Assembly (NCBI GenBank): GCA_030646565.1
Contig: JAUSLA010000024.1
Coordinates: forward strand, 1 to 42,827
Direction of reading: 5' to 3'
Length of the DNA stretch: 42,827 nucleotides
Origin: a bacterium
Lineage (GTDB): Bacteria > Patescibacteriota > Minisyncoccia > Minisyncoccales > RBG-13-42-11
The position numbers and the translations under genes were made by a program. Positions 174-42,445 of this stretch are shown piece after piece. The notes below the pieces were generated by a model, which did no database searches, was not told where the DNA came from, and worked only from the letters and a program-made list of their open reading frames with translations. Positions within the stretch are counted from its first letter, which is position 1; every line of letters begins with the position of its first letter.

Positions 174-370
174 CTCGGCCATCTTGCCTCGGGGAGCACG
201 CCGTCGGCTCGAGTGGTTAAAAAAAATAATTTTCAGCCGCGGCTATTTCTCGCCCCGCCGTCCCAAGCCGCAGCGAAGGGTGGCGATGAGGACTGCGTCC
301 TCATCTTCACCTCGTCCCGCTTCGCGAGACTCGGTCTGCGAAGTGCACCCCTTAGCAAGACGCCCTCGCT
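174..370. repeat. GC-rich mosaic hairpin repeat locus (R1)
   Basis: Contains GATGAGGAC-TGC-GTCCTCATC (285-305), GTCCCGC-TTC-GCGAGAC and a cgtcggctcgag unit. The same units recur at about 17 other loci. Confidence 0.8.
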
Positions 371-3046: not shown

Positions 3047-3050
3047 TTAT

Positions 3051-3148
3051 CGAGTCCGCTAGAGGCGGACGAGTCGAAGAACTTCGTTCTTCTCCACCCT
3101 TCGCCTACGGCTCGGGTAGCTGAAGATGAAGACGCAGTCTTCATCGCC
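3051..3148. repeat. mosaic hairpin repeat locus (R2)
   Basis: GTCCGC-TAGAG-GCGGAC, GAAGAAC-TTC-GTTCTTC, the cacccttcgcctacggctcggg unit, and GATGAAGAC-GCA-GTCTTCATC. Confidence 0.8.
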
Positions 3149-3157
3149 TACTTTTTG

Positions 3158-3709
3158 CTAACTTTTCTTTGTAAAATGAGCAAACATTGCTTCAAGATGT
3201 TTTTTTATCATTCTTTCAATAATTTCCGTTGTAGAGGTATTTTCCGCCTGTCTTGGAAAAACCAAAACATCATCAGCATAAAGTTTAATATCTTTAATTT
3301 GCTCTTCGGAATAACTGTCAGTAGTCGCCACAAATAAATGCGGTTTGATTGTCTTTAATAGTTCATATTGCCATTTTCCAGAATCATCTATATCATCTAT
3401 CGAGATAATATAATCAACGCATTCCTGGTATTTTAGCATTTCCATTCTTTCTTCTTGGGGTATGACGGGTCTAAGCTCGTTTTTTTTATATAATTTTATC
3501 CCTCGGTCGCTGTCCACCCCCACAATCAAAATATCTCCCTGCTCTTTTGCTTTCATTAAGTAGCGCAGGTGTCCTATATGAAGCATATCCCAGGAGCCGG
3601 CTGTACAGACAATTTTGTGCCCCAAAGTTTTATGGGCGTTAATAATTTTTTCCAGCTCGGAATAATCTAAAACTATAGAATTTTTTTGCACTTTCATAAA
3701 TATTATCAT
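3158..3709 (-). CDS. cytidylyl/adenylyltransferase-family protein (RfaE domain II / TagD-like)
   Basis: CTAGSWDMLHIGHLRYL carries the HxGH nucleotidyltransferase motif. Size ~180 aa. Confidence 0.75.
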   Translation of the reverse strand: MIIFMKVQKNSIVLDYSELEKIINAHKTLGHKIVCTAGSWDMLHIGHLRYLMKAKEQGDILIVGVDSDRGIKLYKKNELRPVIPQEERMEMLKYQECVDYIISIDDIDDSGKWQYELLKTIKPHLFVATTDSYSEEQIKDIKLYADDVLVFPRQAENTSTTEIIERMIKKHLEAMFAHFTKKS

Positions 3710-6009: not shown

Positions 6010-6031
6010 GTTCTGTGAAACAGGATGAGAC

Positions 6032-6107
6032 AGTCAAAGAGAGCTTAGTTCTCTTTGACTGCCCGAGCGAAGCGAAGGGTGAAGATGAGGCGAAGTCCTC
6101 ATCGCCA
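6032..6107. repeat. glyA 3' hairpin plus mosaic repeat units (R3)
   Basis: AGTCAAAGAGA..TCTCTTTGACT stem, then gcccgagcgaagcgaagggtgaa and GATGAGG-CGAAGT-CCTCATC-gcc. Confidence 0.75.
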
Positions 6108-6179
6108 CCAATTATAGTTTATTATATTAAATTTTTCTTCGCAGCGCAACTATGTTTGTTAACTCTCATCTGATTATCA

Positions 6180-8383: not shown

Positions 8384-8511
8384 TTTCTTATTCTACCTCC
8401 TTTTTGGATTTTTGGACATCCATATTTAATTGTTAAATTACTACCATTGACTATTTTTATTGTAATATTTTTCCGATTATTACTATTGCGTTAGGGATTT
8501 CTATTTTTCCT

Positions 8512-8556
8512 GTCGAAGAGCTTTCGCTCCTCTTCACCCTTCGCTTCGCTCGGGTA
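8512..8556. repeat. mosaic hairpin repeat locus (R4) overlapping the receiver gene's 3' end
   Basis: GAAGAGC..GCTCCTCTTC hairpin plus the cacccttcgcttcgctcgggt unit. The last six codons (LPERSEG*) of the receiver gene are repeat-encoded. Confidence 0.7.
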
Positions 8557-8914
8557 AATAACTTTTAATTTTTTTAATTATTTCCTGAGGAGTATAGTCT
8601 GTTTTAATCAAATAATCTTTAACTCCGAGAGCAAACGCTTCTTTTTTTGTCTCGGGGCTGTCGTAATTTGAAAAAGCCACGACCGGAATGGAAGACAGAT
8701 TCGGGTCTTTTTTTATTTTGCCCAGAAAGCTGATTCCGTTTGTTTTTGGCAGCAAAATATCAAGCAAAATCAAATCCGGCTTTTCTGTTTTCAAAATTTC
8801 CAAAGCATCTTCAGCTGAAGGCGCTAAAGTAATTCCAAATCCCTCTTGAACAAATTTATCGCGATACATTTCCCCTAAAATTTTTTCGTCCTCTACTATT
8901 AAAATTTTTTTCAT
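8534..8914 (-). CDS. single-domain response regulator (CheY-like receiver)
   Basis: MKKILIVEDE...PDLILLDILLP...DYLIK: receiver acidic pocket, phospho-Asp and the conserved Lys. Confidence 0.85.
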   Translation of the reverse strand: MKKILIVEDEKILGEMYRDKFVQEGFGITLAPSAEDALEILKTEKPDLILLDILLPKTNGISFLGKIKKDPNLSSIPVVAFSNYDSPETKKEAFALGVKDYLIKTDYTPQEIIKKIKSYLPERSEG

Positions 8915-12375: not shown

Positions 12376-12382
12376 GTTTTCC

Positions 12383-12404
12383 TGACAAAACTTATCCACA
12401 AGCC
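12383..12404. promoter_or_regulatory. conserved 22-nt promoter-proximal motif with a perfect DnaA-box 9-mer (empty-site copy)
   Basis: TGACAAAACTTATCCACAAGCC is identical at 25119 and 26317. TTATCCACA lies at 12392-12400, just upstream of the -35. Confidence 0.5.
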
Positions 12405-12422: not shown

Positions 12423-12471
12423 AAGCTAAAACCCCATTTTCACTTTGTAATGTAAAGTCTGACAAAAAGAA
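12423..12471. repeat. ~49-nt dispersed repeat
   Basis: aagctaaaaCcccattttcactttgtaatgtaaagtcTgacaaaaagaa matches 24014-24062 apart from 2 substitutions. Confidence 0.75.
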
Positions 12472-12506
12472 GAAATTAGTTAATATTTAATTAATTCTTC
12501 TTGCAA

Positions 12507-14649: not shown

Positions 14650-14758
14650 CTCTAAAAGCTTATAGTATATTTTATCGCTTATTACTACGCCAATTCTACT
14701 AAAACGGCTAGCGATTAAATATCTATCAATAAACTTTAAGCTGTTTTTTCTTAATTTA

Positions 14759-14865
14759 TCGAGTCCCTCCTACGTCGGAACGAGTCGAAGAACACATTCG
14801 TGTTCTTCTTCACCCTTCGCCTATCGGCTCGAGTTTGTAATGTAAACCCCGACAAAAAGAAGAAA
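14759..14865. repeat. mosaic hairpin repeat locus (R5)
   Basis: gagtccctcctacgtcggaacgagtc, GAAGAACAC-ATTC-GTGTTCTTC, cacccttcgcctatcggctcgag, gtttgtaatgtaaac and ccccgacaaaaagaag. Confidence 0.8.
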
Positions 14866-15037
14866 AATCTTTAGATGTTTAATGTTTCTTAAACAAAAAA
14901 CCAGTGGCGCTTAACGCCGCAATGAAAATGCAAAATAGATTTTATTAATTTTTTTAAATTTTTCTATATAAAAAAATTTGACTTTTGCTTCTAGGTATCG
15001 CAATAGTTTTTATGGGTTGCCAAAATTTCTTCGGAAT

Positions 15038-18234: not shown

Positions 18235-18263
18235 TACACACCTCTTATATCGAGCTTCTGTAA

Positions 18264-18303
18264 GGAGGCGAAGATGAAGAAGAAAACGCAGTTCTCTTCG
18301 ACT
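18264..18303. repeat. mosaic hairpin unit (R6)
   Basis: ggaggcgaagatgaAGAAGAAAAC-GCA-GTTCTCTTCgac lies between the PIG-L and GT2 genes. Confidence 0.6.
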
Positions 18304-18972
18304 CTACGGCAATTTGTCAATCTTGATCACCTGAAACACTTCGGCATAAGAACAATTACCGGCGATTACTCCCCTGTAAGCATTAAGTCCAAGAGATGCC
18401 CTGACCCAATCTTTGACTTTTAATTGGGATTTATATTTCTCAAGCGCGCTCTTCTTTATACTTATAACATCAGATATGTCTTTGAAATATTGGTAGCTTT
18501 GGAGTGGTTTCCATACCTCGTAACCAAGAACAACCCTAACAGCATCTATTTTCTTGCCAAGATCTGGAAAGTAATCGCTCGATGACATCCATAGAGCTTC
18601 TATGGAGATTTCGCTCACGAATCTGTGTTCTCGATCTCCATCATTCGGATGAGGTATGTATACTATTTCCGGACCAATATCCCTTAATACTTTCACGAGA
18701 GAACCTGTTGCGTCTTCACTTGGATAGCAAGCTCTATCTCCAAAAAAAAGTTCTATTATATTTGAAACTCCCAAATCTTCGCAAGCTTCTCTTGCTTCGT
18801 TCTGGATAATAAGGGCTGCCTCTTTCTTATTGGTAACATCTGGGACGGCCGACCATCCAGCAAAAATAAAAGCAACAGCAACCTCATCTCCTTTAGATGT
18901 GTGGAGGCATATACTGCCTCCACACCCTATCGTTTCATCATCGTGATGCGGCGAAAAAACCAGAATCTTCAT
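18304..18972 (-). CDS. PIG-L/LmbE-family N-acetylglucosaminyl deacetylase
   Basis: KILVFSPHHDDETIGCGGSI and HPNDGDREH are the zinc-ligand motifs of the LmbE family. The start is coupled to the upstream stop. Confidence 0.85.
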   Translation of the reverse strand: MKILVFSPHHDDETIGCGGSICLHTSKGDEVAVAFIFAGWSAVPDVTNKKEAALIIQNEAREACEDLGVSNIIELFFGDRACYPSEDATGSLVKVLRDIGPEIVYIPHPNDGDREHRFVSEISIEALWMSSSDYFPDLGKKIDAVRVVLGYEVWKPLQSYQYFKDISDVISIKKSALEKYKSQLKVKDWVRASLGLNAYRGVIAGNCSYAEVFQVIKIDKLP

Positions 18973-24013: not shown

Positions 24014-24062
24014 AAGCTAAAATCCCATTTTCACTTTGTAATGTAAAGTCCGACAAAAAGAA
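24014..24062. repeat. ~49-nt dispersed repeat (second copy)
   Basis: Matches 12423-12471. Related shorter gtttgtaa(tg/ag)(t/c)aaac-c(c/t)cgacaaaa tails lie at 14831, 25325 and 25955. Confidence 0.75.
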
Positions 24063-24254
24063 TAAAATCTCTAAAATTTAAAGAAATTTCCTCAATAAAA
24101 AAACTCGGACACATGGCCGAGAATATCATTTGCTTTATTAAAAATTTAAATTAAATCTTTGCCGGAACAAGATTTCGCATCAAAACCTCATTGACTCTTT
24201 CCTTTATATAGAATTTAAAATTATTTAATAAATTTTGGTTTTTCTCTGCTTTAC

Positions 24255-24917
24255 TTAAATAAACGCTTTTTGGCCTAACTTTTTTGCAATTTTCAAATAA
24301 AATTGCTGCCACTTTTTATCGTCTATTTTCTTAATTAGTTTCGGATAATCTCTTATGCTAAGCGACTTCATCAATTGTGTTCCAAGATTAATTGAATCAA
24401 TATGCCAATCGAATTTTATCCGAGCTTTTTTCAAAAGATCAAAAAAATTAAAATTTTCCCGCTTAATTATAAAATATAAATCAAGGAAATCGCGCGTCCT
24501 TGGATTTTGAGAGATAGTAAAAGTTTTATTAACGGCAATATCTAGAATACTGTCTAATTTTATTCCGTTAACTATCTTTGCCTTAATCAGCGGAGAAAAG
24601 GGATAATATGTAAATTCCACCTTTAAGATTTTGCTGCCGATGTATAAAAAATATAAATTCCTATTGAAGCTTTTCTGAAAATCAAATTTTTTGTATCCTA
24701 TTTCTTTTTTAAACTTCTTCAAAAAGACAGAAATTGTTAACGGATTAAATTCTTTTTCTGAAAAAAAATCTAAATCTTGTGAGAATCTGTACGGAATATA
24801 GTAAGCTGTTAGGGCCGTTCCGCCGGATAAATAAAAATTCTGGGCAATTTCTTTGTCTTTAGAAAATACGCCCAGAAATTTCAATTGCTCCGTGTTCAGT
24901 AATTTTTTTTGTTCCAT
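24255..24917 (-). CDS. AbiEii/AbiGii-family nucleotidyltransferase toxin
   Basis: FYLSGGTALTAYYIPYRFSQDLDFF is the N-terminal NTase motif of the AbiEii family. 220 aa. Confidence 0.75.
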   Translation of the reverse strand: MEQKKLLNTEQLKFLGVFSKDKEIAQNFYLSGGTALTAYYIPYRFSQDLDFFSEKEFNPLTISVFLKKFKKEIGYKKFDFQKSFNRNLYFLYIGSKILKVEFTYYPFSPLIKAKIVNGIKLDSILDIAVNKTFTISQNPRTRDFLDLYFIIKRENFNFFDLLKKARIKFDWHIDSINLGTQLMKSLSIRDYPKLIKKIDDKKWQQFYLKIAKKLGQKAFI

Positions 24918-25099
24918 AGGAGGAAAGCTAAAAATTTTCTCCGGTCAGGATCTAGTTTCAATTTAAACCAATATCTTTTTAGTAAATTTCTGCTGATTTT
25001 TGTTTTGCCCAACCCAAAATTAATCATTTGCTCTAGTTTCCAAATGGTTTTTTCTTCCCCTGATTTCATTTTTGAAATATCGGTTGACCAATTATACAT
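24896..25099 (-). CDS. small protein upstream of AbiEii (putative cognate partner)
   Basis: 67 aa from MYNWSTD. It overlaps the toxin start by 22 nt. An extended -10 TGGTATAAT ends 6 nt from the ATG, so the mRNA may be leaderless. Confidence 0.45.
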   Translation of the reverse strand: MYNWSTDISKMKSGEEKTIWKLEQMINFGLGKTKISRNLLKRYWFKLKLDPDRRKFLAFLLWNKKNY

Positions 25100-25118
25100 A
25101 TTTATATTATACCATTTT

Positions 25119-25140
25119 TGACAAAACTTATCCACAAGCC
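25119..25140. promoter_or_regulatory. 22-nt DnaA-box-containing motif (copy 2)
   Basis: TGACAAAACTTATCCACAAGCC, immediately upstream of and overlapping the promoter of the 24896..25099 ORF. Confidence 0.5.
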
Positions 25141-25165
25141 CCCACACCTAATGTAGGTGTGGGGG
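25139..25165. repeat. 27-nt perfect palindrome (12-bp stem, 3-nt loop)
   Basis: CCCCCACACCTA-ATG-TAGGTGTGGGGG flanked by a duplicated CAAGCC. It is absent from the paralogous site at 12397. Confidence 0.85.
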
Positions 25166-25356
25166 CAAGCCGTTTTTTCTTAGTTTACCAAGTCCTGCCT
25201 TGCAGGACGCAGGTGGAAAAGAAGATTTATCTTCTTTGACCGAGTCCCTCCTGCGTCGGGACGAAGATTAAGAAGAGTCGAAGAACACATTCGCGCTCTT
25301 CTTCACCCTTCGCCTATCGGCTCGAGTTTGTAAAGCAAACCCCGACAAAAAGAAAA
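25166..25356. repeat. mosaic hairpin repeat locus (R7)
   Basis: GTCCTGC-CT-TGCAGGAC, AAGAAGAT-TT-ATCTTCTT, gagtccctcctgcgtcgggacgaag, gaagaacacattcgcgctcttc, and the cacccttcgcctatcggctcgag tail. Confidence 0.8.
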
Positions 25357-25412
25357 AAATACTATATTATTTATTTAATCTTCACTCTAAACATTTTGCA
25401 CAGACTGGTTTT

Positions 25413-25446
25413 AACAGAAAGCCCGCCGAAGCTAAGTTTGGCGGGC
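25413..25446 (-). terminator. intrinsic terminator after the hicB/hicA remnant
   Basis: Minus strand: GCCCGCC-AAACTTAGCTTC-GGCGGGC followed by TTTCTGTT. Confidence 0.6.
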
Positions 25447-25458
25447 CTGGCAGGACAC

Positions 25459-25588
25459 CTAAATTCTGTTTAAAAATTCTTCTATATCTACTTCTGCCAA
25501 ATCTAACACTCCTTTTAAGGTACCGAGAGCTAATTCTTTATGGAGAGGAACTTATGACTTCTTTTGCAGAGCACGTCCTTTTAGACAT
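25459..25588 (-). pseudogene. decayed hicA-like toxin gene
   Basis: An ATG overlapping the hicB stop gives MSKRTCSAKEVISSSP*. A different frame gives ELALGTLKGVLDLAEVDIEEFLNRI*. These are HicA-like termini; the central GSH/beta-sheet region is missing. Confidence 0.5.
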
Positions 25589-25799
25589 GCTCTAATTCAA
25601 GACTGGTAATCAAAGGCGCCTTTTTCGAAAGATATTTCTTAGTTTTAGGTTGGCCATCTAAATAAAGCTCAACGGCTTCCTTAAGATTTTTCTGCGCTTG
25701 TTCTATGGTTTTTCCTTGGCTAACTACGCCTAATTCTAAACAACGAGCCACAAACCATTTATCATCTTGGTTTATAATTGTAGTAAATTTATAAGTCAT
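25581..25799 (-). CDS. hicB: HicB-family (UPF0150) antitoxin
   Basis: MTYKFTTIINQDDKWFVARCLELGVVSQGKTIEQAQKNLKEAVELYL. Confidence 0.8.
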   Translation of the reverse strand: MTYKFTTIINQDDKWFVARCLELGVVSQGKTIEQAQKNLKEAVELYLDGQPKTKKYLSKKAPLITSLELEHV

Positions 25800-25844: not shown

Positions 25845-25980
25845 CACGTCGAAGAACACATCCGTGTTCTTCTACCGAACTTTCGCGTAGCGAAAGTGAA
25901 GGTTCAAGAAGAGAACACAGTTCTCTTCGCCCCCACCCTTCGCCTGTGGGCTCGAGTTTGTAAAGCAAACCCCGACAAAA
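25845..25980. repeat. mosaic hairpin repeat locus (R8)
   Basis: GAAGAACAC-ATCC-GTGTTCTTC, CTTTCGC-GTA-GCGAAAG, GAAGAGAAC-ACA-GTTCTCTTC, and the cacccttcgcctgtgggctcgag tail. Confidence 0.8.
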
Positions 25981-26059
25981 TTACATTAAACGGGAAACTA
26001 AAAAACCTCGAAGAAAATCCGAGGGAGAAATCCGAATTGTTTTATCGTTTAAATTAAGT

Positions 26060-26316: not shown

Positions 26317-26338
26317 TGACAAAACTTATCCACAAGCC
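26317..26338. promoter_or_regulatory. 22-nt DnaA-box-containing motif (copy 3)
   Basis: TGACAAAACTTATCCACAAGCC, adjacent to the -35 of the 26060..26269 promoter. Confidence 0.5.
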
Positions 26339-26363
26339 CCCACACCTACATTAGGTGTGGGGG
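26337..26363. repeat. 27-nt perfect palindrome, flipped copy
   Basis: CCCCCACACCTA-CAT-TAGGTGTGGGGG is the exact reverse complement of 25139-25165, within identically oriented flanks. Confidence 0.85.
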
Positions 26364-26500
26364 CAAGCCGTTTTTGCATTTCTCATAATTCTAAAAGCAT
26401 TATTATTTCATCGATTGAATAAATTTTTGCTAAATTTTACTTAAAACTTAGTATTTAGTACAATTAAAACAGATTAAGAGTTGCTGTTTTTGAAAGTTTT

Positions 26501-27058
26501 ATGAAATTAAAAGTCGGTATAATCGGGCCAACAAATATAAAAAAATTAAGCAAGCTTACAAAAAAGCCGACGGGTTTTTTTCTTCAGAAAACCAAAGAAA
26601 TAGGCAATCTTCTCGCAGAAATTGGATGCGAATTATGGATTAACAGCGATAAAGGCATGGCAAGCAGAATCGGAAATGCCTATAAAAAAAATGGGGGCGA
26701 AAAATTGGTTGTCCTTTATCCCGTCAAAGGTGAACCATGGCCTAACGCGCACGCAAAGCCCTATATAAAATATGCCGATGAAATTAGAAAAGAACCAAAC
26801 TGGTTTTGGACAAATTATAATGTAACCGCCTTACCGGATATATGTATTTGCGTGGGATTAAGCGCCGGAACCCTAAGTGAATTGGCATATATTAAATGGA
26901 ATTATAAATTAAAACGAGGCAATTTAAAGAAGTTAATTGCCATAAAAGAACTGTTAAGGGGCAGGAAAATCCCGCCGGAAATCGAAGTGGAGATTAAAAA
27001 AATTTTGGTATATGTCGATAACGTTAGGGAATTAAGACAATTTTTTAAAAATCGGTAG
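26501..27058 (+). CDS. LOG/TIGR00725-like (SLOG Rossmann) protein
   Basis: KVGIIGPTN..., LWINSDKGMASRIGNAY and VGLSAGTLSELAY resemble the GGxGxM...PGGxGTxxE layout of LOG-like proteins. Confidence 0.5.
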   Translation: MKLKVGIIGPTNIKKLSKLTKKPTGFFLQKTKEIGNLLAEIGCELWINSDKGMASRIGNAYKKNGGEKLVVLYPVKGEPWPNAHAKPYIKYADEIRKEPNWFWTNYNVTALPDICICVGLSAGTLSELAYIKWNYKLKRGNLKKLIAIKELLRGRKIPPEIEVEIKKILVYVDNVRELRQFFKNR

Positions 27059-27211
27059 CGATGAGGACTTCGCCTCATCTTCACTCTTCGCTTCGCTTGG
27101 GTAGGGGACGAGGACTGCGTCCTCGTCTTCAGCTACCCGAGTCTCGTGAAACGAGACGAAGGGTGGAGAAGAACGAAGTTCTTCGACTCGTCCCGCTTTG
27201 CGGGACTCGGT
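27057..27211. repeat. mosaic hairpin repeat locus (R9)
   Basis: GATGAGG-ACTTCG-CCTCATC, cactcttcgcttcgcttggg, GACGAGGAC-TGC-GTCCTCGTC, GTCTCG-TGAAA-CGAGAC, GAAGAAC-GAA-GTTCTTC and GTCCCGC-TTT-GCGGGAC. Confidence 0.85.
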
Positions 27212-27213
27212 AT

Positions 27214-27423
27214 ATGAAAAGTATTCTCAAATTTTTAATAGAAGCTGGGCGACTAAAAAACGTCAAAAGAAAAGGGATAACTTTTTATGGCGTAAAGAAT
27301 CCCCACTCTGCCTTGGTGGGAACACGCCGACGAAGTTATAGACGACCCATTATTGCTGAAATTTTTAAAAGAAATCGAAAAAGAGGAGTTAAAAAAATAG
27401 GGGGAATGCAAGTGATATTATAA
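27214..27423 (+). pseudogene. HD-domain (HD_3/YfbR-like phosphohydrolase) remnant with an internal deletion
   Basis: MKSILKFLIEAGRLKNVKRKGITFYGVKNP matches the HD_3 N-terminus. After a frame change, WWEHADEVIDDPLLLKFLKEIEKEELKK* looks like the C-terminus. The catalytic HD core is absent. Confidence 0.5.
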
Positions 27424-30739: not shown

Positions 30740-30767
30740 ACTCTGGCGGCTTCAATATTTTTAAAAA

Positions 30768-30795
30768 GGCGATGAGAACGAAGTCCTTATCGCCC
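30768..30795. repeat. single hairpin unit (R10, degenerate)
   Basis: GGCGATGAGAAC-GAA-GTCCTTATCGCC. It overlaps the BtpA stop codon. Confidence 0.55.
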
Positions 30796-31611
30796 TATTC
30801 GGTCAATAAAATTTTTAACTTTTTCTTTACTAATTCTCTGCTTCCAAGTTTTTATATTAACTTCATTGTTTTTAGATGCGCCCTCTTTAAGAGAAGTGCT
30901 TACTATCGCGCCGTTCGCGTATTTTAATAATTCGCTGATATTTTCTTTATCAGCGCCGCTTCCAACCAGTAATGGAAAATCAGCCACAGCTTTTCTGACT
31001 GCAACCAGATTTCTTAAATCCGGAGCGTCACCCGTCCATTTTCCGGTTAGAATTAGGGAATCGGCGCCGCTTTTAATCGCTTCAAGCGCAGATTTCTCAA
31101 TTGGTCTCTTATTTAAAAGCTGGGCATGCTTAACTTGAATATCGACTAATAAAATAATATTTCCAGCTTTTATTTTTTCTTGAAACTCCTTAACTTTTTC
31201 TGGATTGCCATTTATAATACCGTAATTAGTTTTTACTCTATCAACAAACACCGGTATCCTAATAAACCTTGCTCCTATTGTTTTAGCTATAGATAAAGCG
31301 GCTCTAAAATCATTCCATAGAACGCTTACGCCAATAGGCAGGTTAGTTTCTTTTTTGATTTTTTCACCCAAAAAAGTCATAATTGCGACCGTTTCAGGAC
31401 CGACTTTTTCTGTATGGGGAATATCGTAATTATTCTCAAAAATTATTCCGTCCACTCCCCCGCTTTCAAAAGCCTTTAAATCTTTTAAAGCGTTATTTAA
31501 TGAAACCTTAAAACCGGGAAATTCAGGGTATCCCAAAAGCGGCGGAAAATGAATTGCGCCAATAATAATTCCGCTTTTTTTCTTAAAAATTTTATAAAAT
31601 TTATTTTGCAT
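30787..31611 (-). CDS. BtpA/SgcQ-family TIM-barrel protein
   Basis: IIGAIHFPPLLGYP, GGVDGIIFENNYD, IGARFIRI, VDIQVKHA and VGSGA...NGAIVSTSLK track BtpA-family blocks. Confidence 0.8.
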   Translation of the reverse strand: MQNKFYKIFKKKSGIIIGAIHFPPLLGYPEFPGFKVSLNNALKDLKAFESGGVDGIIFENNYDIPHTEKVGPETVAIMTFLGEKIKKETNLPIGVSVLWNDFRAALSIAKTIGARFIRIPVFVDRVKTNYGIINGNPEKVKEFQEKIKAGNIILLVDIQVKHAQLLNKRPIEKSALEAIKSGADSLILTGKWTGDAPDLRNLVAVRKAVADFPLLVGSGADKENISELLKYANGAIVSTSLKEGASKNNEVNIKTWKQRISKEKVKNFIDRIGR

Positions 31612-33457: not shown

Positions 33458-33492
33458 ATAAAAAATGAGGGGCCTTCTGTTCAAAGGCCCCC
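33458..33492 (-). terminator. intrinsic terminator between the HAD and M20 genes
   Basis: Minus strand: GGGGCCTT-TGAACAG-AAGGCCCC followed by TCATTTTTTAT. Confidence 0.65.
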
Positions 33493-33588: not shown

Positions 33589-34218
33589 TCAGATACGGCT
33601 TCTGCTATTGACGAAGGTGAAGGGGAAGATGAGAATAAGATTCTCATCGCCTACAGCTATTGTTTTGAAGCCTAAATTTTTAGCAGTAATCAAGTTGGCT
33701 TCCTCGTTATCAGCATACCATCGCACCTTATAAGAAGAAACAGCTAGTTGCAAATTCTGAAAGGCGCGTGGGTCTGGTTTTTGGTAGCCATTATTTTCGA
33801 ACATGCCAAAGATTTGTACAAAAAGATCTTCTATTCCTATACATTCAAAAATATTCTTGGCAAAAGCTGATGGATTGTTGGTATGAACATAAAGCGGCGC
33901 ATCTAATCGTAAAAGAGCTTCGCGAAGTCGGTCATTCCTTCTGACGCCGTAAAATAAGGGATCTATCGCAAGATAAGTTTTCTTAATAAAGTCTTCTGTA
34001 TCTTGAATTATTCCCTCGCGCCAAAAAACCAATAAAGTGCTATGGATATTATGGCGCTTGAACAGCTCCCGCCGTTTTTCCAAAATTTGCTCTGCGCTAA
34101 TTGAGGCCATTCGAGCCAGAAGCGTAATCATTCTTTCGGTTATCGCTCTTTCAAACTCCGGCAGGCAATTATATAACGTACCATCATTATCGAACACATA
34201 GGCAATCTGTTGCGCCAC
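33589..34218 (-). CDS. HAD-superfamily phosphatase
   Basis: YVFDNDGTLY motif I. The GTG at 34218 follows AAGGAGGGCAAAA; the track ORF starts at a TTG at 34272. The C-terminal 19 aa are repeat-encoded. Confidence 0.75.
   Translation of the reverse strand: MAQQIAYVFDNDGTLYNCLPEFERAITERMITLLARMASISAEQILEKRRELFKRHNIHSTLLVFWREGIIQDTEDFIKKTYLAIDPLFYGVRRNDRLREALLRLDAPLYVHTNNPSAFAKNIFECIGIEDLFVQIFGMFENNGYQKPDPRAFQNLQLAVSSYKVRWYADNEEANLITAKNLGFKTIAVGDENLILIFPFTFVNSRSRI
33610..33652. repeat. mosaic hairpin unit (R11) inside the HAD gene's 3' end
   Basis: gacgaaggtgaaggggaa-GATGAGAAT-AAG-ATTCTCATC-gcc. Confidence 0.7.
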
Positions 34219-34290: not shown

Positions 34291-35667
34291 TTAAATAATC
34301 GAGGGCTTTCCTCCGCTTAACTCTACGTAATGGGAAAGCGTTTGCCAAGCTCTTCCAGAGACAATAGCCCGACGACACTCCTGAAAACATTCGCAAAGAT
34401 ACTTTTTGTTAAGACCATCATTGCCGACAGCATCCGGACGGCTCAAGTAGTTATGGGCAAACAATCCTAAGGCTGCATTCATTGCCAAGAAATCAAGCTG
34501 ACACCCGCAACCATCTTGAAGCGCTTGACTATTGGCTTGCTGAAGAACAGCCCTTTCATTCTCTAATAGAATAGAAGCTGGGTTAATCGTTGTCCCAAAA
34601 TCACTAGGTCTAAGCAAAAATGTACCTAAAAATTTACCTTGATGAGCCATAGCTACTACTGAAGCATATGGAGAAACTTCATCCAAAACGGCATGTTTTT
34701 TAACCTGCTGAAAACTATTCGGATTTATTGACATACCTGCCTCGTTTAAGCCGCAGACAACTGCAATGCCACCTATTTCTTGCAACTCTTTCTGGTGCAA
34801 AAGAACGTAAGCTTTGGCGATCACTGAAGGATGAACTTTTTCGTTTACCCCCATAATCCGGCTAATTTTCGTTCTTGGACTAATTGGCGGACTCATTGGC
34901 CCGGTAATATGATTAATCGTTTCCATCATGATTAAATGAGAAGCGTCATGAACGGTTTTTACCAAATGAGCGTCAAGGTAACAAAATTTGTTCTGCTGCC
35001 AAATATTAATGATTTCTTCTTCAGTCGTATAATTCGTTCTGGCTCCAAAAAGTTCAATCGCTTCGGTGCTTCCGACAGCCGAAGTATTGGCGTAAGACCC
35101 GTGTTTAATTACAGGTAAGCCAAGGCTTGCCAATATCACGGCACTCAACGTGGAAACATTGATTGTTTTTTTTCGTGTTCCGTTCACCGAAAAACCGACA
35201 TCTGCTCCCATTCCGCAAGTATCAATAACTTCTCCCAAATCTAACTGAATTACAGTGTCCATTAATGTCGCGGCAACGATTCCGGCTACTTCTTCTGACG
35301 TTAATCCTTTAAAGGATTCTTTACCGGCCATTAATTGCAGGAAAGCGATGCCCTGACCAAGAGCTCTGCTTTCTGTAAAACCGTTCTGCAAATTTGCCGG
35401 TAGCAAGTCCTTGCAGATCGAAAAAATATCATTATTCGTAGCGGCTAACGTATAGAACATTCCGCAAAAGGCTTCCTCAAAGCTAAGGCTTAGACCATGC
35501 TTTACCTTTCGGTCCAAGGACTCCAAATGAATTTTGGCCAATTGCGAAACTATTTTTTTATTTCCGTCCAATCTAGCCGACACATTATATCCCCGGGCTA
35601 AACTCTCTCGCGCTTCTTGTTTAGCTCGCTTTTCTCCGTTAAGCAGAATCCGTGAAATACCTGTCAT
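34291..35667 (-). CDS. divergent glycosyltransferase family 3 protein (TrpD / nucleoside phosphorylase-like), 458 aa
   Basis: DTCGMGADVGF..TINVSTLSAVILASLGLPVIKHGSYANTSAVGSTEAIELFG parallels the TrpD block DTCGTGGDG..NISTxxA..A..G.PV.KHGNRxxSS..GSAD.LEALG, but with altered catalytic-loop residues. Confidence 0.7.
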   Translation of the reverse strand: MTGISRILLNGEKRAKQEARESLARGYNVSARLDGNKKIVSQLAKIHLESLDRKVKHGLSLSFEEAFCGMFYTLAATNNDIFSICKDLLPANLQNGFTESRALGQGIAFLQLMAGKESFKGLTSEEVAGIVAATLMDTVIQLDLGEVIDTCGMGADVGFSVNGTRKKTINVSTLSAVILASLGLPVIKHGSYANTSAVGSTEAIELFGARTNYTTEEEIINIWQQNKFCYLDAHLVKTVHDASHLIMMETINHITGPMSPPISPRTKISRIMGVNEKVHPSVIAKAYVLLHQKELQEIGGIAVVCGLNEAGMSINPNSFQQVKKHAVLDEVSPYASVVAMAHQGKFLGTFLLRPSDFGTTINPASILLENERAVLQQANSQALQDGCGCQLDFLAMNAALGLFAHNYLSRPDAVGNDGLNKKYLCECFQECRRAIVSGRAWQTLSHYVELSGGKPSII

Positions 35668-35712: not shown

Positions 35713-35980
35713 AAAAACAAAAAACTCCTCGTCTCTGCCGCATAAATAAATTATGCTTCAGGGACGAGAAGTCATCTCGCGGTGCCACCCCGATTTCTCT
35801 AATCAAATTTCAAAACGAAATTTGACGAGCTCTTCATCGACTTTGGTTTTACCAGTATCGATTATCCTATGGTTACGGAGGAAGCCGGGTTTCTACTGTT
35901 GCAGAAGCCACCTTGTCCCATTTACAGGACGAATCGGGCCCAATCCCCTTTTAAAAATTTCAGGGGACCCAATTCATAGG
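35713..35980 (-). promoter_or_regulatory. T-box leader (tRNA-sensing riboswitch) with an antiterminator/terminator switch
   Basis: Minus strand: AAATCGGGGTGGCACCGCGAGA (T-box core at 35791-35778). Antiterminator: GGG / bulge GUGGCACC / GCGAGA-UGACU-UCUCGU / CCC. The competing terminator ACTTCTCGTC...GACGAGGAGT is followed by TTTTTTGTTTTT. Confidence 0.8.
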
Positions 35981-36011
35981 TTTTAAATTATTATCATAAA
36001 AGCTATTTTTA

Positions 36012-36040: not shown

Positions 36041-36407
36041 AGCCCGAGCTTTTGCGTAGCAAATCAAAGAAGATAAATCTTCTTTTCTATCTTCGTTCGC
36101 CACAGGCGAACTCGATAAGCGAAGGGTGAAGATGAAGACTGCGTCTTCATCGCCGACCGAGTCTCACTTGTGAGACGAGGCGGAAGAAGAGGCTGAAGGC
36201 CTCTTCGCCGACCGAGTCCCACTGCAAGCGAGGCGCAGGTGGAAAAAAATTTATTTCTTCACTTAATAAAAAAGCCCGAAACTATAATTTTCCGGGCTCT
36301 TTAGGGCGACGAGAACTGCGTCCTCATCTTCACTCTTCGCTTCGCTTGAGTGGGCGACGAGGACTGCGTCCTCATCTTGACCTTCGTCCCGCTTCGCGGG
36401 ACTCGGT
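36041..36407. repeat. densest array of mosaic hairpin units (R12)
   Basis: At least 9 consecutive hairpins, including AAGAAGAT-AA-ATCTTCTT, GATGAAGAC-TGC-GTCTTCATC, GTCTCAC-TTG-TGAGAC, GAAGAGGC-TGAAG-GCCTCTTC and GACGAGGAC-TGC-GTCCTCATC, plus cgaagggtgaa/cactcttcgcttcgc linkers. Confidence 0.85.
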
Positions 36408-36866
36408 AGGTGAAAGTACCCACCGATTGGCAACTCTTAGATATTTAGACTCATTGCCTTCGATTGAAAGTTTATGCATTAAAACAACATCGCTATTTGG
36501 CAGTTCTTTTACCGGCTGAACACAAAGATATTCCTTCAATCGGTCTTGTTCGTAAACTTTGACTACGCTTGGATAGCCAGGAATACGATAAACGCGGTCT
36601 GGAAAGATTGAGCTTCCTACTTCAATGAAACCTTTTTGGCTAAGCTGTTCTCTCTCCTTTTCTGTTAGAATACTTTGAAGCAGCTGGTCTGCTCGTTTTT
36701 CTGCTTTCTCAAAGTCTATATTTGAATTTGGAACAGGTGAATTTGAAACAGGAACGGTCCCACGTTTGAGACTGCGATTGAGACTGCAAATAGTCATTAT
36801 GAAGCACATTACAAGTGGCAAAAGAATAAACAAAATTTGTCCCAAATATGCAAATATAAAATCCAC
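36372..36866 (-). CDS. hypothetical membrane-anchored protein coupled to the upstream GG-tailed ORF
   Basis: GTG start 4 nt after GGGAGGT. N-terminal TM segment. The C-terminal SPTESREAGRRSR* is encoded by repeat R12. Confidence 0.5.
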   Translation of the reverse strand: MDFIFAYLGQILFILLPLVMCFIMTICSLNRSLKRGTVPVSNSPVPNSNIDFEKAEKRADQLLQSILTEKEREQLSQKGFIEVGSSIFPDRVYRIPGYPSVVKVYEQDRLKEYLCVQPVKELPNSDVVLMHKLSIEGNESKYLRVANRWVLSPTESREAGRRSR

Positions 36867-37908: not shown

Positions 37909-38181
37909 CTACATTCCCGAACCCGGGTTGGCTGGCGGAGGAGGAGAAGTTGGAGGCGGAGGCGGGGTTGGGTCTATAGGTGGAGGGGGCGGCGATAAAG
38001 GAGGGGAAGGTTGCATTGGAAGAGTCGGCCCTTGCGATTTCTGGGGAAGGTACGAAGAAGATTCCTTCTTCGCCACCTCAGTTAAAACTTCGGTATTCGA
38101 AACGTTTGGCTTTCCTCTTTTTGAATAATAAATAAAAAGGATCACTGCCACAACGATAACAATAAGTATAAAAAGCGTCAT
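37909..38181 (-). CDS. membrane-anchored proline-rich protein
   Basis: N-terminal TM segment (LFILIVIVVAVILFIYY) and a C-terminal PPLSPPPPPIDPTPPPPPTSPPPP tract. Confidence 0.5.
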   Translation of the reverse strand: MTLFILIVIVVAVILFIYYSKRGKPNVSNTEVLTEVAKKESSSYLPQKSQGPTLPMQPSPPLSPPPPPIDPTPPPPPTSPPPPANPGSGM

Positions 38182-38186
38182 ATAAT

Positions 38187-38290
38187 GAGTCCTTCTTGGA
38201 CGGACGAAATTGAAGACGAGGACGCAGTCCTCGTCGCCTATGAGTCCAGCTTTGCTGGACGAAAGTGGAGATGAAATTTATTTCATCGAC
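38187..38290. repeat. mosaic hairpin repeat locus (R13)
   Basis: GTCC-TTCTTG-GAC, GACGAGGAC-GCA-GTCCTCGTC, GTCCAGC-TTT-GCTGGAC and GATGAAAT-TT-ATTTCATC. Confidence 0.8.
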
Positions 38291-38380
38291 CAAGTAATTT
38301 CTAATATTTATAAAGCTTCGACTTTGCGTTGCTCTATCTTTATTTTCTTTCTTTATCACTCCCCTGTCAAGAGAAGATTT

Positions 38381-39772
38381 TTAGAAATTAGAGATTAACT
38401 TATATATATCCCCTGCCCCCATTATTATTAAAACATCAAATGGCGAAGAGATAAATCTCTTCTTCACCTTCGCCCCGCAATAGCGGGGCTCGGTCTCTGA
38501 AAGATTTTTTTTAAGATAATCTAAAATTTTTTCCTTTGGGAGATACATTATATCTTTCCTTTTTATTGCCTTCACTAATTTTTCAGAATTTACTTTCTCT
38601 TTTATTTTCCCTTCTTCCCTGCCGGCCACGTCATAAATATCGGTTATGATAATTTTATTTATGCATAAAGCCTGCTTAAAAACATTCACAAAATCTTTAA
38701 ATAAATAATGCGTTCTTTGATATTGATGCGGCTGAAAAACGCACCAGATTCTTTGCTTTGGATATTTTTCCCGGGCGGCCTTAAAGGTAACTTTTACTTC
38801 CGTGGGATGATGGCCGTAGTCAGAAATAATTGTTTTTCTCGCAGAACCTCCTTTTACTGCGAGGACGGGCCTCGTAATTTCAAAACGGCGCCAAGAACCG
38901 CGATATTCTGACAAAGCCTTAAAGGATATTTTATCAGGGATTTTCAAAGCGCGGGCCGCTGTCAAAGCCGCTAAAGCGTTGGAAATATTATGGTCTCCCG
39001 GCACCTTTAAAATCTGTTTTAATTTTTTTGCTTCTTTTTGTTTCAAGCTATACAAAGAGATCAGATCTCCTCGGGAGATCCGATCTCCAATAATTTCTTG
39101 AATATTTCTCTCATCTTTGTTTGCCACCAGAACTCCGTCTTCCGGCAAATGCCCGATATATTTTTTGAATACCTTTAAAATATTACCCAAATTTTTATAA
39201 TAGTCCAAGTGGTCAGCTTCAATTGTTGTTAAAATAATAATTTTCGGCCAGTAATTTAAAAAAGAGGCAAAATGCTCGTCTGCCTCAATGACTAAATATT
39301 CACTCTTCCCTACCCTGCAGTTATTGTCGTTAAATTCTTTGACTTTTGTGCCGACGATTACCGTCGGGTCAAGCCCGGCCTTAACCAGCAAAATGCCGAG
39401 CATTGCTGTTGTTGTGCTTTTTCCGTGCGTTCCCGAAACCGCAATGGTAAAATATTGTTTTGTTAATTCGCCTAATGCTTCCGGATAACTCTGGCATTTT
39501 ATCCCCAATTTCCTTGCAAATTTTAGCTCAGAATTATCTTTTTTGACAGCCGGACTATAAATTACCAAATCTATATCTTTTGGTAAATTTTCTGGCTTGT
39601 GCGGACCGATAATAATTTTTGCCCCAAGCTTTCCCAAGACATCCGTGATTTCGGAAGAAACCAAATCAGAGCCGCTAACCTCGCAGCCTTTTTCCAGATA
39701 ATATTTCGCCAAAGCCGAAACACCAATGCCTCCAATGCCAATAAAATGAATTTTTAGTTTTTTAATTGGCAT
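38381..39772 (-). CDS. murC: UDP-N-acetylmuramate--L-alanine ligase
   Basis: IHFIGIGGIGVSALAKYY, AVSGTHGKSTTTAM and C-terminal IIMGAGDI. It carries an in-frame repeat-derived insertion near the C-terminus. Confidence 0.9.
   Translation of the reverse strand: MPIKKLKIHFIGIGGIGVSALAKYYLEKGCEVSGSDLVSSEITDVLGKLGAKIIIGPHKPENLPKDIDLVIYSPAVKKDNSELKFARKLGIKCQSYPEALGELTKQYFTIAVSGTHGKSTTTAMLGILLVKAGLDPTVIVGTKVKEFNDNNCRVGKSEYLVIEADEHFASFLNYWPKIIILTTIEADHLDYYKNLGNILKVFKKYIGHLPEDGVLVANKDERNIQEIIGDRISRGDLISLYSLKQKEAKKLKQILKVPGDHNISNALAALTAARALKIPDKISFKALSEYRGSWRRFEITRPVLAVKGGSARKTIISDYGHHPTEVKVTFKAAREKYPKQRIWCVFQPHQYQRTHYLFKDFVNVFKQALCINKIIITDIYDVAGREEGKIKEKVNSEKLVKAIKRKDIMYLPKEKILDYLKKNLSETEPRYCGAKVKKRFISSPFDVLIIMGAGDIYKLISNF
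38441..38495. repeat. mosaic hairpin units (R14) inserted in-frame in murC
   Basis: GAAGAGAT-AA-ATCTCTTC, ttcaccttcgc, CCCCGC-AATA-GCGGGG, ctcggt. Translated as ETEPRYCGAKVKKRFISS within MurC. Confidence 0.8.
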
Positions 39773-40323: not shown

Positions 40324-40339
40324 GTTAAAATATCGCTTA

Positions 40340-40473
40340 CCCAAGCCACGTCAAAGAGAACTGCGTTCTCTTCTCCATCTGCGTTCCGCAAAGCGGAACT
40401 TAATCAGCGAAGGGTGGAGGCAAAGAGAACTATGTTCTCTTCTTAAACCCTCATCCCGCAAGCGGGATTCAGT
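40340..40473. repeat. mosaic hairpin repeat locus (R15)
   Basis: AAGAGAAC-TGC-GTTCTCTT, GTTCCGC-AAA-GCGGAAC, cgaagggtgga, AAGAGAAC-TAT-GTTCTCTT and ATCCCGC-AA-GCGGGAT. Confidence 0.8.
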
Positions 40474-40554
40474 AGATGAATGAAAGTTCTTCGATTGTAT
40501 TTTAACATAAAAAGCCGTAGAATTAAAGAACGAGTTTTTTGAATAAAAAACGAA

Positions 40555-40586
40555 GTTAAAGATGAAGCGAAGCTTCATCGCCCGAC
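40555..40586. repeat. single hairpin unit (R16)
   Basis: GATGAAGC-GA-AGCTTCATC-gccc. Confidence 0.6.
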
Positions 40587-41691: not shown

Positions 41692-42353
41692 ATCAAACGA
41701 TAGCAAAAATTTTAAATGAGATAGCGGAATTGCTGGAAATAAAAGGAACTCCTTTTAAGCCCTCGGCTTACCGGAAAGCGGCAGTGGCTTTGGAAAATTT
41801 AAAAGAAGACATTTCTTTAATTTACAAAGAAAAGGGCGCTAAAGGATTGAAAGAAATTCCGGGTATCGGCAAAAGCATCTCGGAAAAAATTGAGGAATAT
41901 TTGAAAAAAGGCAAGCTGAAATACCATAAAGAATTGAAAGATGAGACCGCCGTGCGTCAGCTGATAACTCACTTTTTTGAAACCAAGGGCCTTTCTCTGG
42001 AAGAATTAAAAAGAAGCGCTAAAAAAAGAAAAATTATTTATTCCCGTTTTACGCGGCCGGCAAAACAGCTTTTAGAATTGGCGGGGTCTGTTGAAAAATC
42101 AGGGGAAGCCATTGATAAAGTGGCTGAATGGGCAAAATCAAGAAATCTGGATTACTCCATTGAAACAGTTTTCAAAAAGTGGCTGGAACTGGACAGATTA
42201 AAACCAAAAGAAGTTGTTAAAAAACCCTATTTTCGGGGAGACCCGATGGTCTGGTCGGAGACAAAAAGAAAGTGGTATGTAATTTCGCCCGATGGCGAGT
42301 GGCTAGAATTCGCCGGTAAGGAAGGAGAAATAGAGTGGAGGATTATGAAATAA
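41685..42353 (+). CDS. PolX-like N-terminal helix-hairpin-helix domain protein with an unknown C-terminal half
   Basis: IAKILNEIAELLEIKGTPFKPSAYRKAAVALENL...LKEIPGIGKSISEKIEEYL resembles the 8-kDa/HhH N-terminus of family X polymerases. No polymerase domain. Confidence 0.6.
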   Translation: MLNQTIAKILNEIAELLEIKGTPFKPSAYRKAAVALENLKEDISLIYKEKGAKGLKEIPGIGKSISEKIEEYLKKGKLKYHKELKDETAVRQLITHFFETKGLSLEELKRSAKKRKIIYSRFTRPAKQLLELAGSVEKSGEAIDKVAEWAKSRNLDYSIETVFKKWLELDRLKPKEVVKKPYFRGDPMVWSETKRKWYVISPDGEWLEFAGKEGEIEWRIMK

Positions 42354-42356
42354 TCG

Positions 42357-42393
42357 TAGGCGATGAGGACTGCGTCCTCATCTTCAACTTCGT
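42357..42393. repeat. single hairpin unit (R17)
   Basis: GGCGATGAGGAC-TGC-GTCCTCATC-ttcaacttcg. The stem and loop are identical to 285-305. Confidence 0.75.
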
Positions 42394-42414
42394 TTTTTAT
42401 TCTAAAAAACTCGT

Positions 42415-42445
42415 TAAATAAAAAAGGTTCGTAAAAACGAACCTT
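42415..42445 (-). terminator. intrinsic terminator after the 42444..42749 gene
   Basis: Minus strand: AAGGTTCG-TTTTTA-CGAACCTT followed by TTTTTATTT. The stem overlaps the stop codon. Confidence 0.6.

Follow-up and report, generated by a model that had tools for sequence, protein, structure and literature searches.

The window analysed here is a complete metagenome contig of 42,827 bp and ~37% GC with an ordinary housekeeping gene content for the candidate phyla radiation (CPR), including rplK, thyA, genes for dihydrofolate reductase and serine hydroxymethyltransferase (SHMT), queuosine genes and murC, as well as a two-component system and toxin-antitoxin genes. The best protein matches to its histidine kinase and MurC reach only 69-71% identity and are labelled Candidatus Pacebacteria, Nealsonbacteria or Patescibacteria, and the host is, as judged from its sequence, a groundwater CPR bacterium that is Paceibacteria/Nealsonbacteria-like. 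Interspersed among these genes is a family of short hairpin repeats, which a first-pass annotation had described as a genome-pervasive mosaic akin to repetitive extragenic palindromic (REP) sequences and bacterial interspersed mosaic elements (BIMEs), and which forms the array at 36041-36407.

The basic unit of the family is one two-hairpin module of ~55-60 nt, which reads GTAG-GC-[hp1 GAnGAnnnn/loop/nnnnTCnTC]-TTCACC(C)TTCG-[hp2]-CTCGGTA and, in reverse complement, TACCGAG-[hp2]-CGAAGGGTGAA-[hp1]-GCCTAC, where hp1 is the GAnGA-footed hairpin, hp2 the GTCCCGC-type hairpin, and F and R denote module orientation. hp1 has a purine-rich stem of 7-9 bp and a loop of 3-4 nt; hp2 has a stem of 6-8 bp with a loop of the same size and a stem sequence that is almost free, being all A-T in some copies, and in single-stranded DNA folds it is lengthened by pairing of ACC in the connector with GGT in the tail. 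The hairpins quoted in the first-pass annotation were all found where it placed them, but the three unit types into which it divided them are parts of this one module, the third or 'linker' unit (CACCCTTCGCC..GGCTCGAG) being the hp1-hp2 connector plus a shrunken hp2. Modules are single, joined head-to-tail via a shared CTCGGTA/GGC junction, or inverted, and hp2 may be shrunk or deleted; this variety of arrangements accounts for the mosaic look of the family. Units stand mostly head-to-tail, with occasional inversions, and are accompanied by conserved linkers, TTCACCCTTCG and GCC(G/T)ACCGAG. The 5' tag before hp1 shows column frequencies of 52% for G, 44% for T, 60% for A and 90% for G, followed by G-C, so that exact GTAG is present in about one third of the copies, beside variants such as ATAG, GTGG, GTCG and GGTG. 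The two ends of the module, GTAGGCGA.. and ..CTCGGTA, do not form an inverted repeat.

The focal region 36041-36407 contains 10-11 hairpin units, in line with the at least nine first counted, although these do not form one continuous array: they make up two clusters that flank an ordinary bidirectional intrinsic terminator at ~36268-36302 (A-tract, GC hairpin, T-tract), which lies outside the repeat family. The left half (36041-36265; here and below, features given without a sign are not assigned to one strand) adjoins the -35 box of a strong promoter at 36039-36012(-) and comprises an F module (36060-36119), the connector CGAAGGGTGAA, an hp1 (36131-36151), an R module (36153-36212) and a degenerate R module (36210-36268), with matches of 35.4, 29.4, 42.6 and 20.4 bits to R1, a covariance model of the module built from 15 clean copies. 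The right half (36302-36412, + strand) consists of a module with reduced hp2 (36302-36348, 33.0 bits) and an F module (36350-36410) that has the top score in the window, 76.7 bits. The hp1 at 36125-36154 stands in R context (GGTGAA-hp1-GCC) with loop TGC, the loop in other R-context copies being GCA, which hints that it was flipped within its stem by an intra-hairpin inversion or arm-to-arm conversion.

The hairpin family is real. With perfect hairpins defined by a stem of at least 7 bp, a loop of 3-7 and an arm GC of at least 0.4, the window has 39 compared to 5.1 +/- 2.1 in 100 dinucleotide shuffles, and 15 with stems of at least 9 bp compared to 0.68. Hairpin density is 20 per kb within 19 loci and 1.0 per kb outside them; these loci total 1,952 nt, which is 4.6% of the contig or, counted on non-coding DNA alone, 24%, and match one another in both orientations at 75-97% identity. 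R1 gave 31 matches at E<1e-3 and weaker ones at 8509 and 30757 (E ~0.002-0.008), which together cover 17 of the 18 loci originally named; of these 18, that at 2582 is a lone hp1 seen by eye, and that at 174 holds only degenerate pieces, the real modules lying at 259-456. That the repeats stem from misassembly, or from base composition by chance, for which nothing speaks beyond the window being a metagenome contig, is refuted: the shuffles fail to reproduce the hairpins, the same modules occur on independent contigs from several studies, and Logan contigs of the groundwater metagenome run from which the window derives reproduce it at a depth of ~50x, with depth peaks specific to the repeats.

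The loci lie between unidirectional (10), convergent (4) or divergent (2) genes, within genes (2) or at the contig start without a left-hand gene (1), and 11 of the 19 overlap a called open reading frame (ORF), mostly at its 3' end or stop codon. Most modules are found in 3' untranslated regions (UTRs) and intergenic DNA, after the stop codon and ahead of the true terminator. Canonical T-tract terminators stand apart from them (36268-36302, 42424-42445 and 33468-33492), and a terminator scan picked just three family hairpins, via weak T-rich tails. As first observed, the modules mostly lack T-tracts, and we rejected the possibility that the family represents intrinsic terminators.

Several modules have become part of proteins. 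A complete module at 38439-38497 contributes 54 nt in-frame to the essential gene murC, encoding the 18 residues PRYCGAKVKKRFISSPFD; the insert is missing in 23 orthologues, in all of which the flanking residues are adjacent, as seen in the BLASTP gap, by codon comparison and in a 24-sequence alignment, and no target-site duplication is evident at this one insertion site. A classical MITE (miniature inverted-repeat transposable element) derived from a DDE transposon was rejected, given the lack of terminal inverted repeats and of an evident target-site duplication. The C-terminus of the HAD-hydrolase is module-encoded (..VGDENLILIFPFTFV..), with the ORF stopping six codons later; the final 12 residues and the stop codon of ORF 36372-36866(-) come from the module in the right half of the focal array; the last residues and stop codon of the response regulator are also module-derived, its ORF being five residues longer than the orthologue; and GTAG at 27055-27058 supplies the TAG stop codon (27056-27058) of ORF 26501-27058.

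The murC genes of related CPR bacteria carry other, unrelated palindromic in-frame inserts with stems of 13-15 bp, at 3143-3180, 3586-3619 and 4002-4103 of contig L070 and at 2167-2204 and 2852-2886 of contig L071. One such insert, TCAACACCCGGTGTT..AACACCGGGTGTTGA, encodes QHPVLLNQH, and another, ACGAGGCCCGGCCTCGT.., encodes TRPGLVVRPGLV, of which residues ~299-313 of the window MurC, TRPVLAVKGGSARK, are a decayed version. Several palindromic families seem to colonise coding DNA in the clade of the host.

Stem sequences vary between copies and, as initially noted, both arms change together. In an alignment of 50 modules (E<1e-5) from the window and related metagenome contigs, 96.5% of paired cells are complementary, a value reached by none of 500 shuffles (82.2%), and changes are compensatory on both sides at 12 of 15 pairs, with 110 double-change cells compared to 32.3 in shuffles. 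The alignment was fitted to the model, which favours pairing; the margin over the shuffles is nonetheless large, and control alignments that had been slid are only 41-65% paired. At least 15 different stems are known for each hairpin, and even all-AT stems such as GTTTTTTA/TAAAAAAC still pair perfectly. One-sided changes of the G-U type account for just 8 of 635 cells. Modules occur on both strands of the contig (~14 + and ~11 -) and in both orientations relative to the upstream gene (~11 sense, ~7 antisense), as the first-pass annotation had stated. Its argument for selection on structure is strengthened by the covariation and is to be refined as regards the level: since pairs are Watson-Crick only, modules take both orientations, and copies lie in a divergent promoter region and in coding sequence, the constraint looks to act at the level of DNA hairpins, or of both strands, and not of a single RNA.

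These data bear directly on whether the modules could be functional RNA, that is, 3'-UTR stem-loops against 3'->5' exonucleases, T-tract-free terminators or RNase processing sites between cistrons, kept by selection on RNA structure. Most loci do follow stop codons directly, at unidirectional or convergent genes; the modules are upstream of real terminators and so probably transcribed; their structure is strongly conserved and stable, with z-scores of -3.5 to -5.7 in six of seven single-stranded folds (the seventh, -1.6); and E. coli REPs are established to stabilise upstream mRNA (discussed in PMC3733652). However, a functional RNA would fit poorly with the two orientations relative to upstream genes, with the near absence of G-U pairs, with copies in the divergent promoter region 40337-40585 and in coding sequence (38439-38497 and 33608-33666), with nearest relatives that do with almost no modules, and with identical tandem arrays, which resemble amplification and not function. 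We therefore regard an RNA role as the reason for the repeats as unlikely.

The family extends well beyond the window, in agreement with its being genome-pervasive. The summed depth of source-run contigs is 53 in the single-copy flank and ~8,200 (~155x) over the hp1 core at 42356-42388, and 103 contigs of that run carry one hp1 subtype with other flanks. By depth, this subtype has copies of the order of 100-150, a figure in which the palindrome may be counted twice and to which related populations may contribute; its 6-7 copies in the 43 kb window correspond to ~150 in a genome assumed to be ~1 Mb. An exact-pattern scan of 185k species genomes returned 20 matches, 19 of which were chance matches in coding sequence of GC-rich genomes; the one real match, a Berkelbacteria metagenome-assembled genome (JAUSEP01), has the same modules with the same flanks, and the source species itself is absent from these GTDB representatives. 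In metagenomes, 12 of 47 matches were to AT-rich CPR-type contigs, from groundwater and other metagenomes, with the same modules and flanks, and the remaining 35 were due to chance in GC-rich DNA; a 0.1-um fraction from Hainich is among the carriers. Viral contigs gave no matches. Four of these 12 contigs have identical tandem arrays with periods of 37, 39, 57 and 64 nt.

In the nearest relatives available, with ~70% amino acid identity and a syntenic LigT-murC region, we found ~6 mostly AT-rich modules in 96 kb, as against ~30 in the 43-kb window. AT-rich copies (31-33% GC) lie upstream of and overlap the murD start in two of them, at 13687-13753 of contig L068 and 17003-17118 of contig L072; they represent an old insertion that both have inherited, and their stems are still paired. 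Sparse in relatives, dense here and with a shared murD site, the family is old in the clade and strongly expanded in this genome.

Searches for known elements gave no other identity for the repeats. Rfam had no family over them at the gathering score across the whole window, and only chance-level matches at a relaxed threshold over the focal array; tRNA and tmRNA searches of the window found none; and no transposase was found in a Pfam scan of 47 window ORFs, which are essentially all its long ORFs, as the first-pass annotation had also concluded. Without an Rfam match or a transposase in the window, the notion that the units are fragments of an insertion sequence (IS) or intron was rejected, while attC sites, CRISPR and group II intron fragments were dropped on anatomy. 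A CGTC tag for hp2 was likewise rejected, as the TC of CGTC is paired and co-varies. The arrays of TIGR-Tas systems have constant repeats and unique spacers, and we discarded them, the variable parts here being self-complementary stems. Copies beyond the contig, supported covariation and the lack of a link to any IS or intron all agree with the family as first proposed.

We then compared the family with described repeats. In the GTAG and CGTC REP super-families, a stem of 6-13 bp with a loop of 2-4 nt is accompanied by an unpaired tag, which in the GTAG type stands at one end as GTAG or as GYAG/GTRG, and GTAG-1 and GTAG-2 have a dinucleotide spacer and a 3-nt tail; complementary-stem subfamilies occur, as do singles, dimers and clusters; and copies lie near 3' ends of unidirectional or convergent ORFs, supply TAG stop codons and are in some cases intragenic, including Rickettsia palindromic elements (RPEs) (Di Nocera et al. 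2013, PMC3733652, a survey of eight phyla). The CPR family resembles the GTAG REPs and BIMEs of Proteobacteria (E. coli REP/PU, Pseudomonas GTAG-1 REPs/REPINs and Stenotrophomonas SMAG) in having a 20-40-nt unit with a 7-9-bp stem and 3-nt loop, and GTAG-1 and GTAG-2 in its GTAG-like unpaired tag, dinucleotide spacer and conserved 3-nt tail. It also shares with GTAG REPs the complementary-stem subfamilies, hundreds of copies per genome and clusters with conserved linkers, besides the location at 3' gene ends of unidirectional or convergent ORFs, TAG stop codon donation and occasional intragenic copies.

It differs in its host, a CPR bacterium with a small AT-rich genome, and in a looser tag, which most published families keep in >90% of copies, a second hairpin of variable sequence within the unit, the dominance of head-to-tail arrangements, given that head-to-tail dimers are rare in the described GTAG/CGTC families, and the rarity of G-T pairs, which are 'often observed' in known GTAG REPs (PMC3733652). 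In E. coli BIMEs orientation alternates regularly, unlike the mainly head-to-tail order here. A REP/BIME-like reading is thus supported, with the exceptions of a tag kept only as a consensus and of head-to-tail dominance.

Likenesses to other systems are partial. Like RPEs, these are palindromic repeats in the reduced, AT-rich genome of a host-dependent bacterium, and the 18 residues added to MurC recall the ~18-30 that RPEs add in-frame to housekeeping genes while leaving the ORF intact; unlike them, the family has only one or two of its 19 loci within genes and no sequence relationship, RPE-1 is longer (100-150 bp), and Rickettsia elements are CGTC-tagged or untagged (RPE-4 and RPE-6 being CGTC-type REPs). 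The pneumococcal BOX elements of Streptococcus pneumoniae are modular, with few box types in variable number, modules of 45-59 nt and a whole element that folds as one. The likeness to them lies in the modular build, BOX modules being longer and without a GTAG tag. Yeast mitochondrial GC clusters, Allomyces double-hairpin elements and the repetitive hairpin-forming elements of sponges (PMC2800124) are also GC-rich hairpins or double hairpins in AT-rich compact genomes, intergenic and occasionally coding, with no transposase nearby, but belong to organellar genomes and are unrelated in sequence.

What we consider the best explanation, and a reasonably probable one on these sequence comparisons, is that the modules are GTAG-tagged, non-autonomous palindromic DNA repeats of the REP/BIME type, multiplied within a groundwater CPR genome probably via a trans-acting, hairpin-recognising enzyme. 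Paired and multi-copy, the repeats have a density that is lineage-specific, at least one new insertion (murC), and tandem amplification in other populations. A trans-acting enzyme would copy modules at the DNA level by reading single-stranded hairpins and the unpaired flanks GTAG-GC, TTCACC and CTCGGT. GTAG-type REPs go with RAYT (REP-associated tyrosine transposase, TnpA_REP) genes, which are flanked by the repeats in what is termed a REPtron (PMC3733652), and the most likely enzyme would be an HUH/Y1 RAYT or an IS200/IS605-type TnpA whose gene lies in another part of the genome; with no transposase in the window or on the 12 contigs, this enzyme, and with it the RAYT link, is purely inferred. 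New copies would land preferentially beside existing ones or beside gene-end hairpins, the ..GGTA end recreating a GTA(G) context, purifying selection would spare those in 3' UTRs and tolerated protein loops, and an influence on the stability of mRNA 3' ends, if there is one, would be incidental.

Several observations weigh against this explanation. No RAYT, IS200-type or other transposase is encoded in the 43-kb window, nor was one seen on the 12 short contigs that carry the family, whose ORFs were inspected by eye only. No insertion or excision polymorphism could be shown in the source runs, which are available as contigs; the joints found there are other genomic copies and not alleles. The GTAG tag is a mere consensus, head-to-tail order dominates, and modules have no strand bias on the contig, so that a lagging-strand-template preference like that of IS608 is not evident. 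Finally, the keeper of perfect pairing could be hairpin-internal repair and not selection.

An alternative is that the module is a minimal MITE derived from IS200/IS605 (a palindrome-associated transposable element, PATE), with hp1 as left-end subterminal hairpin and hp2 as right-end hairpin. A short target (..GTA) would be followed on its 3' side by the element, inserted by TnpA, and would be restored by the right end ..CTCGGTA, whereby head-to-tail arrays with the junction CTCGGTA/GGC would follow. As in PATEs, there are two different subterminal hairpins with conserved unpaired flanks, no terminal inverted repeats, no obvious target-site duplication at murC and conserved sequence 5' of the insertion, the 5' boundary being nearly always (G)TA/GGC, in unrelated host DNA as well; the Watson-Crick-only constraint also fits. 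Unlike in PATEs, hp2 is dispensable: arrays have been amplified without any hp2 (period 39 nt in contig L039 and 37 nt in contig L063), which is odd for a required end. Moreover, no parent IS is known for the CPR family and neither a full-length one nor a TnpA was seen, strand bias is lacking, and only one insertion site is resolved, which leaves a PATE origin an improbable alternative.

A quite different proposal is that the repeats are host DNA sites, their 9-11-mers (CGAAGGGTGAA, CACCCTTCG) serving as DNA-uptake sequences or as sites for nucleoid or topology proteins, in the way BIMEs bind IHF and gyrase. There are indeed ~10 copies of the connector in the 43 kb, CPR bacteria rely on taking up DNA, and the uptake sequences of Neisseria often form inverted pairs at gene ends. 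Against this, the most constrained parts are the stems of variable sequence and not a fixed word, the connector is missing in many copies, close relatives lack the density, and no protein partner has been identified, making such a role very unlikely.

A more far-reaching conjecture, to which we give little credence at present, is that CPR bacteria of this clade are colonised by several unrelated families of small palindromic elements that routinely insert in-frame in essential genes (murC by itself has at least four different hairpin inserts across relatives), and that spread without RAYT or IS200 by a new mechanism such as hairpin-primed or template-switch copying in replication or repair, in organisms whose repair systems are minimal, or through an unrecognised nuclease. 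If true, these would be to bacteria what GC clusters and double-hairpin elements are to mitochondria.

The remaining loci illustrate the range of arrangements. Upstream of rplK, the cluster at 259-456 has a full F module at 279-338 (GGTGGC-GATGAGGAC-TGC-GTCCTCATC-TTCACCTCG-TCCCGC-TTC-GCGAGA-CTCGGT; 72.0 bits, E=4.6e-21), an overlapping match at 259-311(-) (21.7 bits) and a weaker module at 390-456 (19.5 bits), and degenerate pieces (GGCTCGAG) stretch back from it to ~174. The convergent thyA/HIT gap has a lone hp1-type hairpin at 2584-2606, (G)ATGAGGC-AAA-GCCTCAT followed by GCCTAAC, with no full-module match. A composite of ~106 nt fills the HIT/cytidylyltransferase intergenic space at 3046-3151 (39.9 and 22.7 bits); its single-stranded DNA fold has -22.7 kcal/mol (z = -3.55), and 27101-27214 repeats it in reverse complement at 86-88% (inverted repeats I2 and I6). 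Between the convergent SHMT and M23 peptidase genes, the module at 6030-6109 (31.5 bits) has a 12-bp hairpin at 6031-6061 and hp1 at 6084-6103. A module with reduced hp2 (TTCACCCTTCG-CTTCG-CTCGGGTA) at 8509-8557 (+; E=0.008; repeat families D6 and D8) overlaps the response-regulator ORF at its 3' end, stop codon included, and the radical-SAM/NUDIX gap at 14750-14836 (26.1 bits) contains hp2, hp1 (GAAGAACAC-ATTC-GTGTTCTTC), connector and reduced hp2, as a member of the 92-nt, three-copy repeat family D2. The single module at 18246-18305 (-; 49.6 bits, E=5e-14) takes up the gap between the GT2 and PIG-L genes and adjoins the stop codon of the latter.

Further along are a three-module cluster at 25161-25329 (48.0, 18.5 and 16.0 bits), a cluster of hp1, hp2 (ACTTTCGC-GTA-GCGAAAGT), hp1 and connector at 25845-25950 (68.0 and 21.4 bits), and, between two + strand genes, an array of four hp1 and two hp2 at 27054-27214 (44.6, 44.2, 25.0 and 21.9 bits; fold -31.6 kcal/mol, z = -5.7). 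A lone hp1 (GGC-GATGAGAAC-GAA-GTCCTTATC-GCC) marks the 3' end of the BtpA gene at 30757-30805 (E=0.002), and the module in the 3' end of the HAD-hydrolase ORF spans 33608-33666 (-; 31.2 bits). Two head-to-tail modules lie downstream of murC at 38181-38293 (-; 55.7 and 28.7 bits), and the single one within murC, itself on the - strand, is on the + strand (46.6 bits). The divergent LigT/CYTH intergenic region has two head-to-tail modules joined by CGAAGGGTGGA at 40337-40498 (+; 63.1 and 58.4 bits). A module with an all-A-T hp2 stem (GTTTTTT-GAAT-AAAAAAC) at 40527-40585 (-; 38.5 bits) forms inverted repeat I16 with 42378-42408 (94%). The module at 42342-42417 (+; 71.0 bits, fold z = -5.4), between the stop codon of the HHH_8 gene and the canonical terminator at 42424-42445, also has an all-A-T hp2, GTTTTTTA-TTC-TAAAAAAC.

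Other features of the window were recorded alongside the repeats. Directly downstream of the near-consensus promoter TTGACA-16-TATTAT at 36039-36012(-), and upstream of the Glycos_transf_3 gene 34291-35667, a match to the T-box leader RF00230 at 35757-35986(-) covers model positions 1-219 with 37.5 bits (gathering score 93; E=1.3e-6). Pfam assigned the gene to its family only, and we take it to be TrpD-like. The match may represent a divergent T-box riboswitch in a CPR bacterium. A motif of ~45 nt, TTTGTAATGTAAA(C/G)nC(C/T)GACAAAAAGAA, has five copies (12447-12480, 14830-14873, 24038-24070, 25323-25366 and 25953-25990; repeat families D2 and D7), each ~150-180 nt upstream of a minus-strand gene and three of them adjoining REP-like modules; it could act as a promoter or operator, or belong to a second repeat family. 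A 59-nt repeat at 25119-25177 and 26317-26375 (95% identical, with a partial copy at 12380-12404; families D13 and D17) has a perfect DnaA-box-like TTATCCACA, after which come a GC hairpin of 13 bp (GCCCCCACACCTA..TAGGTGTGGGGGC) and a T-tract. The degenerate tandem repeat of 12-nt period (GGAGTTGNCGTT-like; family D3) at 7106-7232, within the M23-peptidase/PD40 gene, is probably a low-complexity linker. REP-like clusters are interleaved with the toxin-antitoxin neighbourhood 24255-25799, in which the toxin, an AbiEii nucleotidyltransferase, is encoded at 24255-24917 with a small ORF upstream, and the antitoxin, which is HicB/UPF0150-like, at 25581-25799.

CPR genomes are among the smallest and most streamlined known, and here a REP-like repeat takes up nearly 5% of a contig and a quarter of the DNA in it that is non-coding. 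Our literature search found nothing relevant on REP, MITE or palindromic repeats in CPR, Patescibacteria or Parcubacteria; the family is a known kind of selfish repeat in a CPR lineage for which no report was found, with an unusual two-hairpin, head-to-tail grammar. At the repeats, the Logan contigs of that run break off, which accounts for the fragmentation of such genomes in assemblies. For annotation, C-termini, stop codons and short inserts in CPR proteins, as in murC, the HAD-hydrolase and the response regulator, can originate from repeats. Discovery of a RAYT would extend the REP-RAYT partnership to a new part of the bacterial tree, and if there is none, the mechanism of spread would be worth pursuing; the family reflects a burst of selfish DNA that took place recently in a reduced genome, and it offers a marker for the strain-level dynamics of groundwater CPR populations.

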